Shown: positions 34,573-49,474 of the stretch, one piece after another
How the letters are laid out: every line of letters starts with the position of its first letter
Position numbering within the stretch: position 1 is the first letter of the stretch
Made by a program: the position numbers and the translations under genes
Notes under the pieces: generated by a model
Seen by the model: the letters and a program-made list of their open reading frames with translations, nothing else
Told to the model about the DNA's origin: nothing
Databases searched by the model: none
Source: Longimicrobiales bacterium
Lineage (GTDB): Bacteria; Gemmatimonadota; Gemmatimonadetes; Longimicrobiales; Gaopeijiaceae
Length of the DNA stretch: 64,000 nucleotides
Direction: 5' to 3'
Assembly (NCBI GenBank): GCA_965248195.1
Contig: CBDFIQ010000001.1
Span: 1-64,000, forward strand

Positions 34573-34666
34573 CCCTAACGTCTCTGCGATTTGCTGCGCG
34601 TCCAAGATGCTCTCCGCGAGCGTAGCGCACGACCCTAATGCCTACCGCGACTGCAACAATCGCTTG
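34573..34666 (-). other. attC site with its R'' box disrupted by an IS110 element
   Basis: R' GTTAGGG and arms nearly identical to the attC at 45654-47213. Sequence stops at AATCGCTTG where GTT is expected. Confidence 0.75.
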
Positions 34667-34724
34667 ATTCTACCAAGAAGGACCTGCCGGCCGCACCATG
34701 CGGCAACCCCAACCGGGAGGTCCG

Positions 34725-39772: not shown

Positions 39773-40935
39773 CGCGCTGCGGTACGCTGACCCATGATAG
39801 GTAACACTTTGCTGAACCATGATGGGTGACAGTCTCAGATCCTAACATGGGCCTCCACAAGGAGGCGCCATGCCATGGTTGGAGACCGATCCCATGAACG
39901 AACGAAAGCGATTCATTCTCGAAGCTGCCGCCGGCCTGTTCTCGCACACGGAGCTCTGCCTGCGTCACGGCGTCAGCCGTAAGACCGGCTACAAGTGGCT
40001 CGAACGCTACGAGTCTGAGGGACCCGACGGCCTCGGAGATCGCCCTCATCGTGTCCGGGCGCATCCACACACCACCGAGCCACACGTAGTCGATGCCGCC
40101 TTGGAACTCCGCGGACAGCGGCGACGCTGGGGTGCCGACAAGATCCGCGCTCGGCTGCTGACTCTGCACCCTGACTGGAGTGTCCCCTCCGCCCGCATCC
40201 TCCACAAGTACTTCCTCCGCGGGGGACTCGTGAAGAAGCCGCGCAGGAGTCGTAGGCGTCCGCATCCAGGCAAGCCCACAGCTCCCTTCGACGCACCCAA
40301 CGCCATCTGGTCGGCTGACTTCAAGGGTCAGTTCAAGACCCTCGACGGTTGTTACTGCTACCCACTCACCGTCCAGGATGGCTTCAGTCGTTATCTGCTC
40401 GCCTGCCAGGGGCTCGAGGGCACCACCTACTCCGCCTCCCGTCGCGTCTTTACTCGCCTTTTCCGTGAGTTCGGCCTGCCCCAGCGCATCCGCACCGACA
40501 ACGGGACACCCTTCGCTTCCATTGCTCTCGGCCGCCTCTCCCGACTCTCCGTCTGGTGGATCAAGCTCGGTATCCTGCCCGACCTCATCGAGCCCGCCTC
40601 ACCCCAACAGAACGGCCGTCACGAACGCATGCACAAAGACCTCAAGGCCGAGGCCACCATCCCGCCTGCCGGAAACCGTTCCGCCCAGCAGAAGCGCTTC
40701 AACTTCTTCCGCACCGACTTCAACCAGATCCGTCCTCACGAAGCCCTAGGCCAGAAGCCGCCTGCTTCCGCATATCAACCCTCCACCCGCTCGTTCCCGA
40801 CGAAGCTGAGCACACCCGACTACCCTGCTCACTTCGAAGTCCGCAAAGTCTCAACAAACGGAGGTATCCGATGGCACTCCGTCTGGATCAACGTCTCTCA
40901 CCTGCTCGGTGGAGACTACATCGGTCTCGAAGAGA

Positions 40936-43875: not shown

Positions 43876-43992
43876 CTCTAACGGATCTGGGTTTCTGCTG
43901 CAGGACCACAATGCCGACCCGGAGCGCGAGCCGCCAGGCGAGTGCTGCCGGACCTCGCAGCTTACCCTGTCAGCAGCAAACCCTTGTTGGGC
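43876..43992 (-). other. attC site (117 bp)
   Basis: GCCCAAC-AAGGG-TTTGCTGCTG...GCAGCAGAAACCCAGATCC-GTTAGAG. Confidence 0.85.
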
Positions 43993-44097
43993 TGCTCTCG
44001 CTTCGCCGTAGGCGCCCCTCCCAGGAGCCCTAGGCCCGGACCCGCTCGCCGTGTTCCGCCGTCAGAATCGGAGCCTCACATCCCCGGCCCGGTGTCA

Positions 44098-45198
44098 TCA
44101 CCCGTCGATCACGAGTGTCTCCGCGCCACGCCTGGGGCCGCGGCGACTCGGTCGCCACACGAGAAGCAACACGACGGCGAGAAGAAACGCATTCGCCATC
44201 CACATGGCGACAAACGGCGAGATCACCTGCCGGTCAGCGAGCGCCTCGCCCGCATGGAGCAAGGCATAATACCCGGTGAACACGAAGCCGCTCGTGCCGA
44301 GCACGAGCCCGACGCCGCCGTGCGGGAAGCGAAGCGCGGTCGCCGCGGCGGCCAACGCCAGGACCACGCACGCGGCGGCGAGAGCGAACTTCTTGTGGAT
44401 CTCGACCTCGTACGCGGCCACGCGCACGGCCGCGTCCGGCCCCGTCTCAGTTCGAGCCCGCCCTGCCGCCCCCCGCAGTTCGCCGATGGTCATCGTCCGG
44501 TCGGTCGGCTCCCGTGGAGCGCCCTTGATCACCTCCGCGAGCCGCGCGTTCGCGCGGGGAAGGACCTGAGTGTTCGAGACGAAGGTCAACGTAGCGATGA
44601 CAGCGGCAGCGCCCAGCACGGGAGCGACCAGGCGGCGGACCCCGTGGCGTTCTCGCCTCGCGGATGCGAGAACACCTTCCGCGCCCAGCCGCGTGAATAC
44701 CCACGAGACGGCAAGGAAGACGGCCATCGGGATCGTCAGTGCCAGCGTGAACGGCACCGCGAGCATCAGCACCTCGACGGTCACGCCGGCCGGGACTCCC
44801 CTCTCGCTCAGTTGCGGCAATTGCTGCACGGCGTAGTTGGCAAGCAGGATTACCGTCAGCGATCCGCACGAGAGGGCGAAAGGAGTGACGTGGCGGCGCA
44901 GCAGCTGCCGGTGCGTGAGCTTCGACATCGATGGACCTCCGGGGTTTGGGCCGTCCTCTGGCTCCCTGACGCCGACGGATCGACCCGGCGCACGGATAGT
45001 GGTTCGGATGTACCCGCTCAGCGCCAGGCGAGCGATGGCAGCGATTGCGCCCAGCGCGAAGCGCGTATGCTCGGTGGGATCAGCAATCGAGTCGAGTTCC
45101 GCCACCATCCCTCGTGCCAGCTCGCGGTGCCGCGGCGGGGAGAGTTTCACCATGCGCTCGACGATGCGCTCGAGCGCGAGGGGAGAGCGTCGCGGCAT
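44098..45198 (-). CDS. Membrane protein with an LptF/LptG-like permease domain (cassette)
   Basis: TIPMAVFLAV...RLGAEG, EIHKKFALA and AMWMAN motifs. Confidence 0.7.
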   Translation of the reverse strand: MPRRSPLALERIVERMVKLSPPRHRELARGMVAELDSIADPTEHTRFALGAIAAIARLALSGYIRTTIRAPGRSVGVREPEDGPNPGGPSMSKLTHRQLLRRHVTPFALSCGSLTVILLANYAVQQLPQLSERGVPAGVTVEVLMLAVPFTLALTIPMAVFLAVSWVFTRLGAEGVLASARRERHGVRRLVAPVLGAAAVIATLTFVSNTQVLPRANARLAEVIKGAPREPTDRTMTIGELRGAAGRARTETGPDAAVRVAAYEVEIHKKFALAAACVVLALAAAATALRFPHGGVGLVLGTSGFVFTGYYALLHAGEALADRQVISPFVAMWMANAFLLAVVLLLVWRPSRRGPRRGAETLVIDG

Positions 45199-45200
45199 GT

Positions 45201-45503
45201 TCACGCCTTGCGGGTGTGGGGAGGTCGGAGCCACGACGCCTGTGCGCGTTCCAGCGCATGGCGCGCCTGAATCCGACCAGTGGCGGTGAGGCGGTACAGC
45301 TGTCGCGGCGGCTTTCCAGGAAGCTCGGATGCTTCCCATCGCGACTCGAGCCAGCCGTCTTCGGTGAGTCGCGCGAGGAGCGGGTACAGTGTGCCTGACG
45401 AGATGTCGGCGACCTTCATCAGATCGTAGCCGTAGCGCCAGCTCCTCGGCGCCTCCAGAAAGGCGATGAGCGTGCGAGTCGTGGTGCGGGTGAGCCGTTG
45501 CAT
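45201..45503 (-). CDS. PadR family transcriptional regulator (cassette)
   Basis: YGYDLMK...SGTLYPLLARL...PPRQLYRLTATG. Confidence 0.9.
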   Translation of the reverse strand: MQRLTRTTTRTLIAFLEAPRSWRYGYDLMKVADISSGTLYPLLARLTEDGWLESRWEASELPGKPPRQLYRLTATGRIQARHALERAQASWLRPPHTRKA

Positions 45504-45767
45504 GGCCTTAATCTACATATGTCGTATTAGACGCGCAAGGCCGGAGATGCTCACCCACCGCCGCCGCCACGGCGTCAGGCTCGCCACCTCCGCATTCGTG
45601 CCGGTGGGCCAGGAGCGTCGATCACTTCGAGAACGCAGCGCTCAGGCAGAGCAGCCTAACGGATCTGCGATTCTGATCTTATAAGGCGAAAGGCTGACCT
45701 CACTCGAGCGTGGCGTTACGCTGATCTTGCTCAAAGGCCTGCGGCACCCAACCCAAGGAGGCCAGCC

Positions 45768-46805
45768 ATGTTTGTCGCAGGAATCGATGCTCACGCAACG
45801 TATTCGGTGATCGCCATCGTGAGCAACACAGGTCAGCTCGTTGCCGGACCCATCCGGATCAAGAATACGCAAGAGGATCGGCTCAATGATCTACTGGAGC
45901 AGTATCAGCCCCTGGAGGTGGTCGTCGAGACGAGTCCGGCCTGGCCGTGGCTCTTCGATCGACTCCAAGAGCGGGGGATCGACTTCGTGCTCGCTCACGC
46001 CAAGCGGCTCCGAGTCATCGCCGAGTCCAACTACAAGAGTGACGACATCGACGCCGAGTTGTTGACCCGTATGCGACTCGCGGGCCTCATCCCCGAGGTC
46101 CATCCGAAGTGCGTCGAGCAGCGGGAGCAGGCGGTACTGCTACGCAACCGGGCACGACTCGTACGCGAACGCACACGCATGGTGAACCGCATCCATGCCC
46201 AGATCCACAACGTCGGGCTTCATCTGGAGCGTGGGCGTCTGCTCACCCAGGATGGACGCCAGTGGGTGCATGACGTGGCGTGGCCGCTGCTCGGAGCCGA
46301 GCGGCGTCTGTTCATCGACATGCAGTGGGAACTCATCGACCAGATCGTGCCGATGATCAAAACGCTTGATCGCAGGGTTGAGCACGTAGGCCGCAAGGTC
46401 CCCGCTGTAGCTCTGCTCGAGACCATCCCGGGCGTCGGTTCCTATCGGGCATTGCTCATCGCCACCGAGACGTTGCCCATCAAACGATTTCGTACACCGG
46501 GGCACCTGGTCAGCTACGCCGGTCTAGCCCCTCGCTCCTCACAGTCAGGGCTCCGGCCCATCCGCCACGGATCGATCCCCGCCGGGGCCAACCGTTGGCT
46601 GAGGGGCACCTTCGTCCGGACCGTCGTGAGCCACGTCACTCACGCGCCCGACAGCTGGCTATCACAGTCGTACGAACTGATCAGGCAACGGCTCGGGTGG
46701 CAGGTCGCTCGGGTCGCTACCGCTCGGCGCCTCGCTCGTGCTGTGCACGCGATGCTCCGTACGGGTGAGGTCTGGCACGATGAACCCGTGGCTCGATCAA
46801 ACTGA
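45768..46805 (+). CDS. IS110-family DEDD recombinase/transposase
   Basis: GIDAH, VET, KSDDIDA, TIPGVG and YAGLAP..SQSG motifs. Confidence 0.93.
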   Translation: MFVAGIDAHATYSVIAIVSNTGQLVAGPIRIKNTQEDRLNDLLEQYQPLEVVVETSPAWPWLFDRLQERGIDFVLAHAKRLRVIAESNYKSDDIDAELLTRMRLAGLIPEVHPKCVEQREQAVLLRNRARLVRERTRMVNRIHAQIHNVGLHLERGRLLTQDGRQWVHDVAWPLLGAERRLFIDMQWELIDQIVPMIKTLDRRVEHVGRKVPAVALLETIPGVGSYRALLIATETLPIKRFRTPGHLVSYAGLAPRSSQSGLRPIRHGSIPAGANRWLRGTFVRTVVSHVTHAPDSWLSQSYELIRQRLGWQVARVATARRLARAVHAMLRTGEVWHDEPVARSN

Positions 46806-46829
46806 GATGACACACGATGATGGACCGTA

Positions 46830-46995
46830 CCACGACAGGGGTGAGCTCCGCGCGCAGCATGTCGCACGACGACCCTCAGATTCTGATTGAGCCCCCCGCT
46901 CGCATAGCAGATCTTCGGACATCCCCGCGCTGGGATGAAACCTGAATAGATGCCTGAGTTCCTCGTGAGAGGAGACTCACCCAAGATCGGACGCG
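46830..46995 (+). ncRNA. Putative bridge/seek RNA; boundaries approximate
   Basis: Contains target-matching CGCGCAGCA and GATTCTG and donor-matching ATAGATG and AGATC within hairpin structure. Confidence 0.7.
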
Positions 46996-47207
46996 ACGTT
47001 GGTACTGAAGGATGAAAAACGGAAGATGATCACGCAGGCCTTGAGCTACAGACCAGTGGACCGAGCCACCCCTCCGGGACCCCGGACGGGTAAGGGAGGG
47101 CTACGCCCTGTTGACTCCCTTCACCTTATAGATGCTGCGCGTCCAAGATGCCGACCGTAAGCGTAGCGCGCGAGCCTGATGCCTACCGCAACTGCAGCAA
47201 TCACTTG

Positions 47208-47729
47208 TTAGGGGGCTGACGACTTGGCTGATTCAGCTTCAGAGAATCCTGCGATGACCACCACCGTTACAGCTGCGACAAGGGACTTCAGCATCCCACC
47301 CATAACAAATGGGGCGACCCCCTGCCAGAATGCGGGGGTCGCCCCCAGCATCCAGGCGAGCCTCAACCACCCAAGAGCTAGAATCAGCGCATGACCGCAG
47401 ATCATGACGGCAATGGCAGGGCCGAACCGGCGGAGCAGGCCGCGGTCGGCTAATCGACCGGCCGCTGCAGCTGCCGCGACAAAGCCCAGTAGATACCCGG
47501 CGGTCGGCCCTACGAAGTGCGCCCACCCCGACCCACCTCCGGCAAAGACTGGGACGCCGATTCCGCCGACAATGAGGTAGGCGGTCAGTGTCAGGGCGCC
47601 GTCCCGAGCGCCAAGGAGGGAGCCGACGACCAGAACGGCCAGTGTTTGCGCACTCTGGGGGACGTCCGCGCCTGGGATCGTCGCAGTCACTCTCGCAGAG
47701 AGTGCAACCACCACAACACCAACGGTCAT
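47208..47729 (-). CDS. bioY: Biotin transporter BioY (cassette)
   Basis: VPQSAQTL, G.PVFAGG and GPTAGYLLGF motifs. Confidence 0.88.
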   Translation of the reverse strand: MTVGVVVVALSARVTATIPGADVPQSAQTLAVLVVGSLLGARDGALTLTAYLIVGGIGVPVFAGGGSGWAHFVGPTAGYLLGFVAAAAAAGRLADRGLLRRFGPAIAVMICGHALILALGWLRLAWMLGATPAFWQGVAPFVMGGMLKSLVAAVTVVVIAGFSEAESAKSSAP

Positions 47730-47809
47730 CAGCGAGAGACGCCGGAGCCATCCGGTGTTCGGTGCGGTGGTGTGTGGTGGTGTTTCGATGCTCCCCCCTC
47801 AGCCCAGCC

Positions 47810-47911
47810 CCCTAACGTCTCTGCGATTCTGCTGCGTGGCTAATGTGGTGACCGCAAGCGAAGCGCGCGAGCCTCAAAGCCTACCGCGACAGTAGCAATC
47901 GCTTGTTGGAT
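47810..47911 (-). other. attC site (102 bp)
   Basis: ATCCAAC-AAGCG-ATTGCTACTG...GCAGCAGAATCGCAGAGAC-GTTAGGG. Confidence 0.88.
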
Positions 47912-47945
47912 GGCCCTTCGGGACGTCGTACTAAGCCGGACGCAC

Positions 47946-48401
47946 TCAGCCTGGTGCTGCCAGAACGTACGCGCGCGCGCTTCTTACGCGATCTCCAGAC
48001 CATTCGATGATCTCAGTGGCGAGCCCAGGACGGTCTTGGGTGCCGATGAGGAACTCGTACTCCACAACCGAAGTGGATTGGGTCTCAAGTACCCAGGTGA
48101 CCCTGTACCTCAGCGTGCCCTTGACCGGAGCGTAGGACGCAACGAATTCTCGGATGGCGGCGGCCCCTCGCACCGTAGCATCAGTGACGTCCGGTACACG
48201 TCCGATGACGCCAGGACCCCGATGTGTGCCGCCCTCGAGGTACTGCTGGCTTACCGATTCCGGATCAAGGCTTACCCATGCCCCTAGATAGGACTGCAGG
48301 CGCTCGCTCACCGCAACGCTTGTCTCGAGCTGTTCGCGCACCGGCTACGCCAGGGCCATGACCGGCGGGAGGACTACAAGAACCTTGTGAGTGCACCGCA
48401 C
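47946..48401 (-). pseudogene. SnoaL/NTF2-like cassette gene with an in-frame TAG after a signal-like peptide
   Basis: RGAAAIREF...ATEIIEWSGDRVRSARAY; TAG at 48345-48347. Confidence 0.55.
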
Positions 48402-48433
48402 CTCAACCCCCCTAAGCAACGTGAACATGGGCC

Positions 48434-48470
48434 ATCTAACTTTCAACTGTACTGCGAATCCTCTTGATCT
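48434..48470 (-). other. Putative attI site
   Basis: ...CAGTTGAAA|GTTAGATGGCCC is complementary to the first cassette's R'' GGGCCATCCAAC. No attC arm upstream. Confidence 0.55.
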
Positions 48471-48772
48471 TCTAAAGCGGATCCGTTGCGTGGATGGCAA
48501 CGTAGGAGAGACCAAGAGGGCCCGACAGACCCGGTGCAGTCCGCCGCTTGTGGCTTCTTTGCCCTCGGGTTTGGGTTGCCCCGGAGACGTGTTGGTTGCG
48601 TCGGGGAGGCTGTCGGTCGGTGGCAGCCTAGATACCAGAAAACAAACGGGCTCCCGCCTCCGGGCCGTGCACCAGCTCCGCGACTCGAGTAGACTGTCCG
48701 CGGGATTACGGTGACCATGACACCGAGCTGCCATCGTGGCAGCGTGCTGAAGTTTCATACCCGGGAGATTCC

Positions 48773-49474
48773 ATGGACCTCAGAGATACCGTTGCGCTGG
48801 TGACCGGTGGCAGCGAGGGGATCGGTCGCGCCATCGCTGAGGCGCTGATTGAACAGGGATGCAAAGTCACCGTTATGGGCCGTCGTGAGGATGCCGTTCG
48901 GAAGACCGCCGAGGAGTTGGGACTGGACTGGATCGTGGGCGACGTGGGAAACGAGACGGATGCGGCTCGCACCGTGACCTCCGTGATCGAAAAGCACGGG
49001 CGCCTCGACATTCTGGTCAACAACGCCGGATATGGAATCTTCAAACATCTGGTCGACACGACCCTCGAGGAATTGGAGGGCGTGTACCGCACGAACGTGT
49101 TCGGCCCATTCCTCATGTCGCGGGAAGCGGCTCGCCAGTTTATCAAACAAGGCAGCGGCGAACTGATCAATATTGCCTCTACCTCAGGCCTCAAGGGCAG
49201 TGCCGGGCGTACCGCGTACGGTTCCTCGAAGTTCGCGTTGCGCGGGATGACGGAGTGTTGGCGGGATGAGCTTCGACGGCACAACGTGCGCGTCACGTTG
49301 GTGAACCCGAGCGAAGTGATGACCAACTTCGCTGCGAAGGCTGGCGTCGAGCGGGAGCTTTCCGAGAAGAAGCTGCGGCCTGAGGAAATCGCCAACGCCA
49401 TCGTTGGAGCGCTCAACGTGGATAGCCGGGGCTTCATTCCCGAGTTCTCAGTGTTTGCGACGAATCCTTTTTGA
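48773..49474 (+). CDS. SDR family oxidoreductase
   Basis: TGGSEGIG, NNAG and YGSSK motifs. Confidence 0.92.
   Translation: MDLRDTVALVTGGSEGIGRAIAEALIEQGCKVTVMGRREDAVRKTAEELGLDWIVGDVGNETDAARTVTSVIEKHGRLDILVNNAGYGIFKHLVDTTLEELEGVYRTNVFGPFLMSREAARQFIKQGSGELINIASTSGLKGSAGRTAYGSSKFALRGMTECWRDELRRHNVRVTLVNPSEVMTNFAAKAGVERELSEKKLRPEEIANAIVGALNVDSRGFIPEFSVFATNPF

Follow-up and report, generated by a model that had tools for sequence, protein, structure and literature searches.

An insertion sequence (IS) of the IS110 family, IS1111 type, lies in a window of 64,000 nucleotides from a Longimicrobiales bacterium (contig CBDFIQ010000001.1 of assembly GCA_965248195.1, positions 1 to 64,000 of the forward strand), where it interrupts an attC-type recombination site. 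Including both of its TG cores, the element occupies 45674-47134 and is 1.46 kb long. Its choice of insertion site is very probably guided by an RNA encoded in the 3' non-coding region of the element. Two short stretches of this region match the two sides of the target, they are the only variable parts of a near-constant scaffold, and in related elements they change with the target. The host is a marine-sediment Gemmatimonadota genome of two contigs (C1 and C2), 4.86 Mb in size with 63% G+C. The features discussed below are collected in Table 1.

Table 1. Coordinates of the element, its predicted RNA, its target site and its neighbours in the window
Feature	Position	Strand	Description	Evidence
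Left attC arm	45654-45673	+	GCCTAAC box, spacer, GCGATTC (left target flank)	sequence; in attC profile
Left junction	45669-45673	+	GATTC	sequence
Left TG core	45674-45675	+		empty sites with a single TG, occupied sites with TG at both ends
IS body between the TG cores	45676-47132	+	1457 bp	six other full-length copies in the genome, 99.2-99.8% identity
Left subterminal inverted repeat	45680-45693	+	TATAAGGCGAAAGG; 4 nt inside the core	equivalents in relatives
Transposase gene	45768-46805	+	345 amino acids; DEDD/RuvC-like N-terminal and IS110-type C-terminal domain	Pfam, NCBIfam
Target-binding loop of the predicted seekRNA/bridge RNA	46838-46897	+		RNAalifold consensus, 27 sequences
Outer stem P1	46838-46841 and 46845-46848 with 46889-46892 and 46894-46897	+	GGGG/GCTC pairing with GAGC/CCCC	RNAalifold consensus
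5' guide	46851-46859	+	CGCGCAGCA; would pair with the top strand	reverse complement of core and right flank
Inner hairpin P2	46861-46864 with 46870-46873	+		RNAalifold
3' guide	46879-46885	+	GATTCTG; would pair with the bottom strand	identical to left flank and core
Candidate donor-binding loop	46899-46953	+	5' side ...CATAGCAGATCTT, stem P4, 3' side AATAGATGC
Stem P4	lower stem 46916-46918 with 46941-46943; upper hairpin 46920-46925 with 46932-46937	+		compensatory changes in the lower stem
Donor motifs	46946-46952; 46909-46913; 46983-46988	+	ATAGATG; AGATC; AAGATC	sequence
Hairpin P5	46955-46960 with 46974-46979	+		RNAalifold; two pairs changed on both sides
Conserved stretch after P5	46955-46990 (with P5)	+	AAGATCGG	alignment of relatives
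Right subterminal inverted repeat	47117-47130	+	CCCTTCACCTTATA; 2 nt inside the core	equivalents in relatives
Right TG core	47133-47134	+		sequence, comparison of occupied and empty sites
Right attC arm	47135-47213	+	CTGCGCG (47135-47141) ... GTTAGGG	attC profile (nhmmer), matched from position 24 with E 6.8e-20
Nearby uninterrupted attC	47807-47920	+	target GATTCTGCTGCGTG (1 mismatch)	profile E 7.3e-32; folds as a long imperfect hairpin
PadR-type regulator gene	45201-45503	-	left neighbour of the element
BioY gene	47208-47729	-	right neighbour of the element

Covariation of guides and insertion sites

An internal loop of the predicted RNA carries the two putative guides, one on each of its strands; their matches overlap at the core, the top-strand match being located 5' of the bottom-strand match. 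Both had been read from the window in the original prediction and are present where it placed them. A scan of the window for the 14-mer target with up to three mismatches gave 13 matches against 11.2 expected, i.e., no enrichment, and only the match at 47825 is a real attC. The motif matches are beyond chance because guides and flanks covary among elements, not because of the window alone.

For the covariation test, a check already proposed in the original prediction, the two variable stretches of each element were compared with its own flanks. Among 36 elements, 34 could be parsed and 23 have both flanks; these 23 fall into 15 guide classes with about ten different target sequences. Beyond the core, the 5' stretch agrees with its own element's right flank, taken as reverse complement, at a mean of 5.93 out of 7 positions, compared with 2.64 for the flanks of other classes, while the 3' stretch agrees with its own left flank at 4.6 out of 5 positions, compared with 2.1. 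Summed over both sides, 158 of 180 positions match, a value reached by none of 20,000 permutations. The permutation test is conservative, because five of the guide classes aim at the same attC.

Individual relatives, named here by locus number, illustrate the same correspondence. Within the close clade, single-base co-changes are found in L036 (C to T in the guide, G to A in the target) and in L037. The lineage of L049 and L051, with 64% protein identity, uses the same attC family 3 bp further to the right, at TTCTGC-TG-CGCGACCA, and both of its guides are shifted. Judging the flanks by eye, L050, L054, L067 and also L047 occupy the corresponding position of another attC family, L058 is inserted in the central part of an attC, and L048, L057 and L052/L053 are inserted in non-attC repeats.

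Some loci have further peculiarities. L052 and L053, from one genome, have TG at the left and AG at the right junction of a perfectly palindromic target, GTTTC-AG-CTGAAAC; a mismatch between donor and target cores may have been retained after insertion. L060 (3541-4121) is an 88%-identical copy in a related genome, at the non-attC near-cognate site GGTTC-TG-CTGCACG. Its right end directly adjoins a second, partial non-coding region, which begins right after the DNA of the 3' guide (GATTC-TG, followed by ACTGAG...); it looks as if one copy was once inserted into the guide-encoding DNA of another. In the genome studied here, the copies at C1:497274 and C1:1101020 carry T rather than C in the outermost position of the 5' guide (equivalent to window position 46851), a variant that would keep wobble pairing with the target G.

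A conserved scaffold of the predicted RNA in the 3' non-coding region

Relatives were collected by scanning one genome per species, yielding 40 loci with 47-91% protein identity. All but one are from metagenome-assembled genomes (MAGs) of Gemmatimonadota/Longimicrobiales; the exception, L036 (83% identity), is from a MAG labelled Deltaproteobacteria, for which mis-binning or transfer is possible. The scaffold comparison comprises 27 sequences, the window element and 26 relatives from Gemmatimonadota MAGs (50-91% protein identity). For relatives with 57-65% protein identity, only positions 28 to 115 or so of the non-coding region (window 46833-46920) can be aligned.

In the 27-row alignment the scaffold is near-constant and is broken by exactly two variable stretches, which are the proposed guides. 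Column identity is 0.89-0.96 in the stems, the linker and the donor loop and 0.55-0.58 in the guide columns, which vary even though a single guide class accounts for 11 of the 27 rows. RNAalifold returned three helices: the outer stem, the inner hairpin and a later hairpin (P1, P2 and P5). The lower part of stem P4 was added to this consensus; with it included, 94.6% of cells pair, compared with 31-48% for slid partners. Changes on both sides are seen in seven pairs, and none of 500 shuffles reached the observed covariation. The internal loop that the original prediction had described as closed by a GGGG..GCTC stem is thus supported by the alignment of relatives and its compensatory changes; folding the single sequence did not return it, and it was recovered only from the relatives. 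An Rfam scan of 44000-49000, with E-values up to 1, gave a spurious miRNA match only, and no curated family covers the RNA.

Contigs from metatranscriptomes of marine sediment (four runs from three studies) match the whole element. Those of 116 to 385 nt span 46747-47141 with 90-99% likeness. Some contigs from these RNA libraries skip the IS at the attC and correspond to empty sites. Stretches left uncovered by the contigs carry no weight as evidence.

The donor side of the predicted RNA

The candidate donor-binding loop follows the target-binding loop. Its 3' side, AATAGATGC (46945-46953), equals the right end plus the core of the element. The base next to the core tracks the right end (A, G or C in AATAG-N-TG) in 26 of 27 elements, L058 being the exception. 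In the lower stem of P4, one GC pair is replaced by AU in seven of the 27 sequences. Alternatively, the two stretches containing GATC might base-pair (46909-46914 with 46983-46988), although weakly: 84% of cells retain the pairing, and 13 of 25 sequences lose it at the variable position. In IS1111 orthologues, the donor-binding bases are often placed in a multi-loop (PMC11208160). The donor-binding part of the RNA is only partly supported, ATAGATG being the one motif with comparative backing.

Ends and copies of the element

The ends of the element are fixed because uninterrupted copies of its insertion site exist elsewhere in the genome. The site GATTC-TG-CTGCGCG, with a single TG, is present as exact 16-mers at C1:489073 and C1:1100248; a third uninterrupted site, at window position 47823, has one mismatch. 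Comparison of occupied and empty sites points to site-specific insertion with a short shared core and without a conventional target duplication. The insertion point inside an attC arm, the TG cores and the subterminal inverted repeats were all noted in the original prediction, as was the 3' non-coding region, estimated at about 330 nt and measured as 329 nt (the 5' side has 92 nt). The span it gave for the element, 45654-47213, needs correction: this is the interrupted attC, and the IS is 45674-47132 plus the repeated TG. The subterminal repeats are 14 nt long, agree at 12 of 14 positions and leave terminal extensions of 4 and 2 nt.

Most relatives share a TTGAC box (47111-47115 in the window) that lies 1-3 nt upstream of their right subterminal repeat. 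We considered whether it might form a junction promoter with TATAAG of the left end. From the sequence, the two would be 22 nt apart at the circle junction and therefore too far from each other for a standard sigma-70 promoter.

A BLAST search of the genome found 17 pieces of the element, corresponding to 14 loci: seven full-length copies (99.2-100% identical to the window copy), three interrupted by other insertions and four truncated. In all 13 left junctions that can be read, ...GATTC precedes TG-ATCTTATAAGG, and the left attC arm is the same before 11 of these 13. At the right side, nine of 11 junctions read ...CCTTATAGA-TG-CTGCGCG and the remaining two differ by one base each. Each full-length copy has different flanking cassettes. 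The attC arms beside the copies also differ, with GGATCT or GTCTCT spacers and variable right arms, and copies are found at degenerate or non-attC sites as well (C1:1106413 and C2:1762335). Seven near-identical full-length copies with different flanking cassettes suggest recent spread. The original prediction described an intact RNA-guided recombinase programmed for attC. Its programming by guides is supported by the covariation; that the element is intact is suggested, at the sequence level, by the open frame, the conserved catalytic residues and the seven near-identical copies.

The target is an attC-type repeat

The target is a lineage-specific repeat of about 100 bp with boxes of the RYYYAAC ... 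GTTRRRY type, forming an imperfect palindrome with an asymmetric spacer and extra unpaired bases. A simple box-to-box pattern, GCCTAAC...GTTAGG, found no match in the window, because attC boxes vary; a profile built from seven empty copies succeeded. It has 36 matches in the genome, most of them in two arrays on C1 (468-506 kb and 1081-1104 kb), and four in the window, at 34573, 43876, 47133 (the occupied site) and 47807. Ten of the 36 matches start exactly at a right end of the IS, often in successive cassettes and in one orientation. The units between the array sites are cassette-sized and encode MazE/MazF, ParE, a RibD_C protein and small unknown open reading frames (ORFs).

As single-stranded DNA, three out of four attC strands fold into a long bulged hairpin, while the plus strand of the C1:489073 site folds otherwise; the fold energies are no better than those of shuffled sequences. 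The extra unpaired bases indicate one orientation for the recombined strand, and most cassette ORFs are in the opposite orientation. Beside the second array, a remnant of an integron integrase (180 amino acids, C1:1112697-1113260; minus strand of locus L073, 14710-15249) includes the integron-specific insertion. It scores 237 bits with TIGR02249 (positions 124-303), against a full-length cut-off of 265, and 118 bits with XerC. The remnant is cut at both ends and adjoins one of two inverted copies of a gene for a 393-amino-acid transposase of the Mutator/IS256 type; the integron integrase of this genome appears to be dead. The boxes, the cassette arrays and the 36 profile matches support the target as a genuine attC-type repeat, in agreement with the original prediction.

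The transposase

The transposase gene is preceded by AGGAGG, 6 nt upstream of its ATG. The protein matches PF01548 (E-value 3.8e-15) and PF02371 (2.5e-15), and scores 191 bits, against a cut-off of 140, with NCBIfam NF033542 ('IS110 family RNA-guided transposase'). In an alignment with 13 relatives, Glu54, Asp92, Asp95, Ser260 and Gly261 are invariant and Asp7 is at least 90% conserved; Asp7, Glu54, Asp92 and Asp95 align to the motif positions of ISCro4. The C-terminal motif reads GLAPRSSQSG, with Ser260 and Gly261 as its serine-glycine pair; the IS1111 motif has been defined as GL-P----S(t)G (PMC11187229). Searching the Protein Data Bank (PDB) with the single sequence gave no match and a profile was needed; the profile of the 13 relatives matches the transposases of ISCro4 (E-value 2.4e-15) and IS621 (2.8e-14).

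Hallmarks of the IS1111 group as listed in PMC11187229 and PMC11208160 are found in the element: a transposase of 345 amino acids (330-350 expected), a long 3' non-coding region and subterminal repeats in the range of 7-17 bp. These observations support its assignment, from sequence, as an IS110-family RNA-guided transposase with IS1111 hallmarks. Among the proteins of the 72,556 plasmids in PLSDB, the closest are 30-34% identical and none exceeds 34%. The best matches are mostly haloarchaeal, including an ISHvo10-family transposase, together with alphaproteobacterial IS110-family genes (Rhizobium, Pseudosulfitobacter).

Proposed mechanism

By analogy to the work on the IS1111 seekRNA and the IS621 bridge RNA, the RNA would be bound by the DEDD transposase, and the element would excise as a circle joining its ends as ...ATAGA-TG-ATCTT.... 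The first loop of the RNA would hold the attC through two complementary stretches, one of 9 nt for the top strand (core and right flank) and one of 7 nt for the bottom strand (left flank and core). The circle junction would be held by the second loop, via AATAGATGC and probably AGATC. Strand exchange at the TG core would then lead to insertion in one orientation. With its attC hairpin split by the insertion, the cassette boundary concerned is probably unusable by an integron integrase.

Points against the proposal and alternative explanations

Several observations weigh against selection of the insertion site by an RNA of this kind. The contigs from RNA libraries are from relatives with 90-99% likeness, carry neither strand nor end information, and may derive from DNA carry-over; no circle-junction joint was present in the contigs of the four runs, although contigs cannot exclude one. 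A simple scan revealed neither a sigma-70-like promoter nor an intrinsic terminator. Folding of the non-coding region, proposed as a check in the original prediction, gave no help from the single sequence, which folds no better than shuffled sequences (z-scores of -0.48 for the whole region and +0.94 for 46830-46935). At the donor side, the covariation with the right end amounts to only about three independent changes. The original prediction had matched both kinds of donor motif to the circle junction; the tracking of the right end speaks for ATAGATG, but the AGATC stretches, while conserved, do not covary with the left ends (ATCT, ATCC and ACCT). Among the relatives, L059 and L060 fail for the 5' guide (0 of 7 positions each), the right end of L060 abutting part of a second copy of its own non-coding region, and L050, L054, L067 and L068 are at near-cognate sites with one or two mismatches.

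Instead of an RNA, the transposase itself might read the sequence or the hairpin of the attC, the guide matches being incidental or having another role, e.g., in regulation. Recognition of structure and of sequence are inseparable within this genome alone, because most sites are in one structured repeat, and the conserved TTGAC box near the right end, like the subterminal repeats, might serve as a binding site for protein. Yet proteins that are 57-65% identical, combined with a near-constant scaffold, are associated with about ten unrelated targets, and in each case the loop stretches match the element's own flanks. Insertions away from attC also still match the guides, as for L060 at GGTTC-TG-CTGCACG. 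We thus consider direct reading by the protein highly improbable. A similarly low probability is given to a scenario without transposition, in which the copies arose when cassette shuffling or homologous recombination multiplied an attC that already contained the element, which is no longer active. The element does lie inside a recombination site, the arrays have been rearranged, the integrase is a remnant and three copies of the element are themselves interrupted. However, the sequence outside the attC differs at every locus and the adjoining attC arms differ too; copies are also present at the degenerate or non-attC sites on C1 and C2, and the reading frame and catalytic residues are intact.

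The internal matches might also be fossil pieces of a target captured in the non-coding region rather than guides. One of the stretches runs in the sense of the target, and mis-set IS ends have sometimes led to target sequence being counted as IS (PMC11187229). Here, however, the stretches are located 248-283 nt inside the right end, are split in opposite senses across the two sides of a conserved loop and change with the target in relatives, so that a fossil origin is scarcely credible. Selection of the site by an RNA from the 3' non-coding region remains by far the best explanation.

Comparison with known systems

The closest parallels are the attC-targeting IS1111 elements. For ISKpn4 and ISPst6, a seekRNA from the 3' non-coding region, which co-purifies with the transposase, has been shown experimentally (Siddiquee et al. 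2024, PMC11187229), with its top-strand match located 5' of the bottom-strand match. The same report describes top-strand-first order, with overlap at the core, for ISEc11, ISPa11 and ISKpn4, and a seekRNA for ISEc11 that is needed for movement and can be reprogrammed. Bridge RNAs have been predicted in 93% of IS1111 elements (Durrant et al., PMC11208160). Like ISKpn4, ISPst6 and ISPa25, as described, the element studied here has a long 3' non-coding region, a fixed place and orientation in cassette attC sites, and a (here predicted) RNA that matches opposite strands, the top-strand match being 5' and the two overlapping at the insertion point. It differs in its host, which belongs to the Gemmatimonadota and not to the Proteobacteria, and in its target, a different, chromosomal attC family of about 100 bp; its RNA is predicted, whereas those of ISKpn4 and ISPst6 were purified. 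According to a source-data table, transposases of the IS1111-attC lineage (ISPa21, ISKpn4 and ISPst6) are 46-89% identical to each other. The distance of our element from the ISKpn4 lineage is judged from the PLSDB plasmid proteins; that PLSDB has nothing above 34% speaks for a separate lineage with its own, independent route to attC.

With IS621 and ISCro4 (PMC11208160; PDB entries 8wt6 and 9t56), the element shares a DEDD recombinase with a C-terminal serine, a target loop (predicted here) with two strands that read both DNA strands around a 2-nt core, and, as a candidate, a second loop for its own ends. The protein similarity is at the profile level only. In contrast to those systems as described, the predicted RNA is 3' and not 5' of the gene and has its two guide types in the opposite order, the element has long subterminal repeats, and the donor side may be a multi-loop, as in the IS1111 orthologues mentioned above. 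ISPa11, also of the IS1111 type, has a repeated, hairpin-forming target and a seekRNA from its 3' non-coding region, but its target is a repetitive extragenic palindromic (REP) sequence and not an integron site. Group IIC-attC introns (PMC3001079) are likewise described as homing into attC, but are retroelements with an entirely different mechanism.

The papers found on Gemmatimonad attC sites and integrons mention no such IS in titles or the beginnings of abstracts, and the titles found for 'IS1111-attC' name none in the Gemmatimonadota. The element is a new, distant example of an already known mechanism; it differs in the host phylum, the attC family, the distance from known elements and an RNA outside the Rfam families.

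Neighbouring sequences in the window

The IS110-type ORF is the sole long frame between the PadR-type regulator gene and the BioY gene. An LptF/LptG-like permease gene and the PadR gene (together 44098-45503) and the BioY gene (47208-47729) are all on the strand opposite to the transposase gene. The attC-type repeats at 34573-34668, 43876-43998 and 47807-47920 are of the same family as the interrupted attC, and with the permease, PadR and BioY units they look like a small attC cluster without an integrase. Another multi-copy sequence, at about 40600-40700 (minus strand), surfaced by chance as a match to the target motif with two mismatches. More than 100 nt of it are identical at five to six places in the genome, with copies at C1:486135, C1:1096619, C1:1098294 and C2:3175217; it is probably a different mobile element.

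Implications

Although the mechanism itself was already known, the findings would widen the range of IS1111-type elements with RNA-guided targeting of attC, adding a distant phylum and a deep-branching lineage of transposases. A bolder idea, which we regard as rather unlikely, is that the clade diversified purely by rewriting its guides, so that it now hits several places in attC sites, and that the element could move cassettes independently of the integrase. If this were true, IS-cassette units might be excised and re-inserted at any cognate attC in a genome with a dead integrase.

The relatives also constitute a natural data set, in which one constant scaffold is combined with about ten guide pairs and their matching targets, including a register shift of 3 bp. 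Such a series should be useful for deriving the pairing rules of IS1111-type elements and for choosing new orthologues. For integron biology, the occupied sites suggest that a single IS can split about a quarter of the attC sites of one genome after decay of the integrase.

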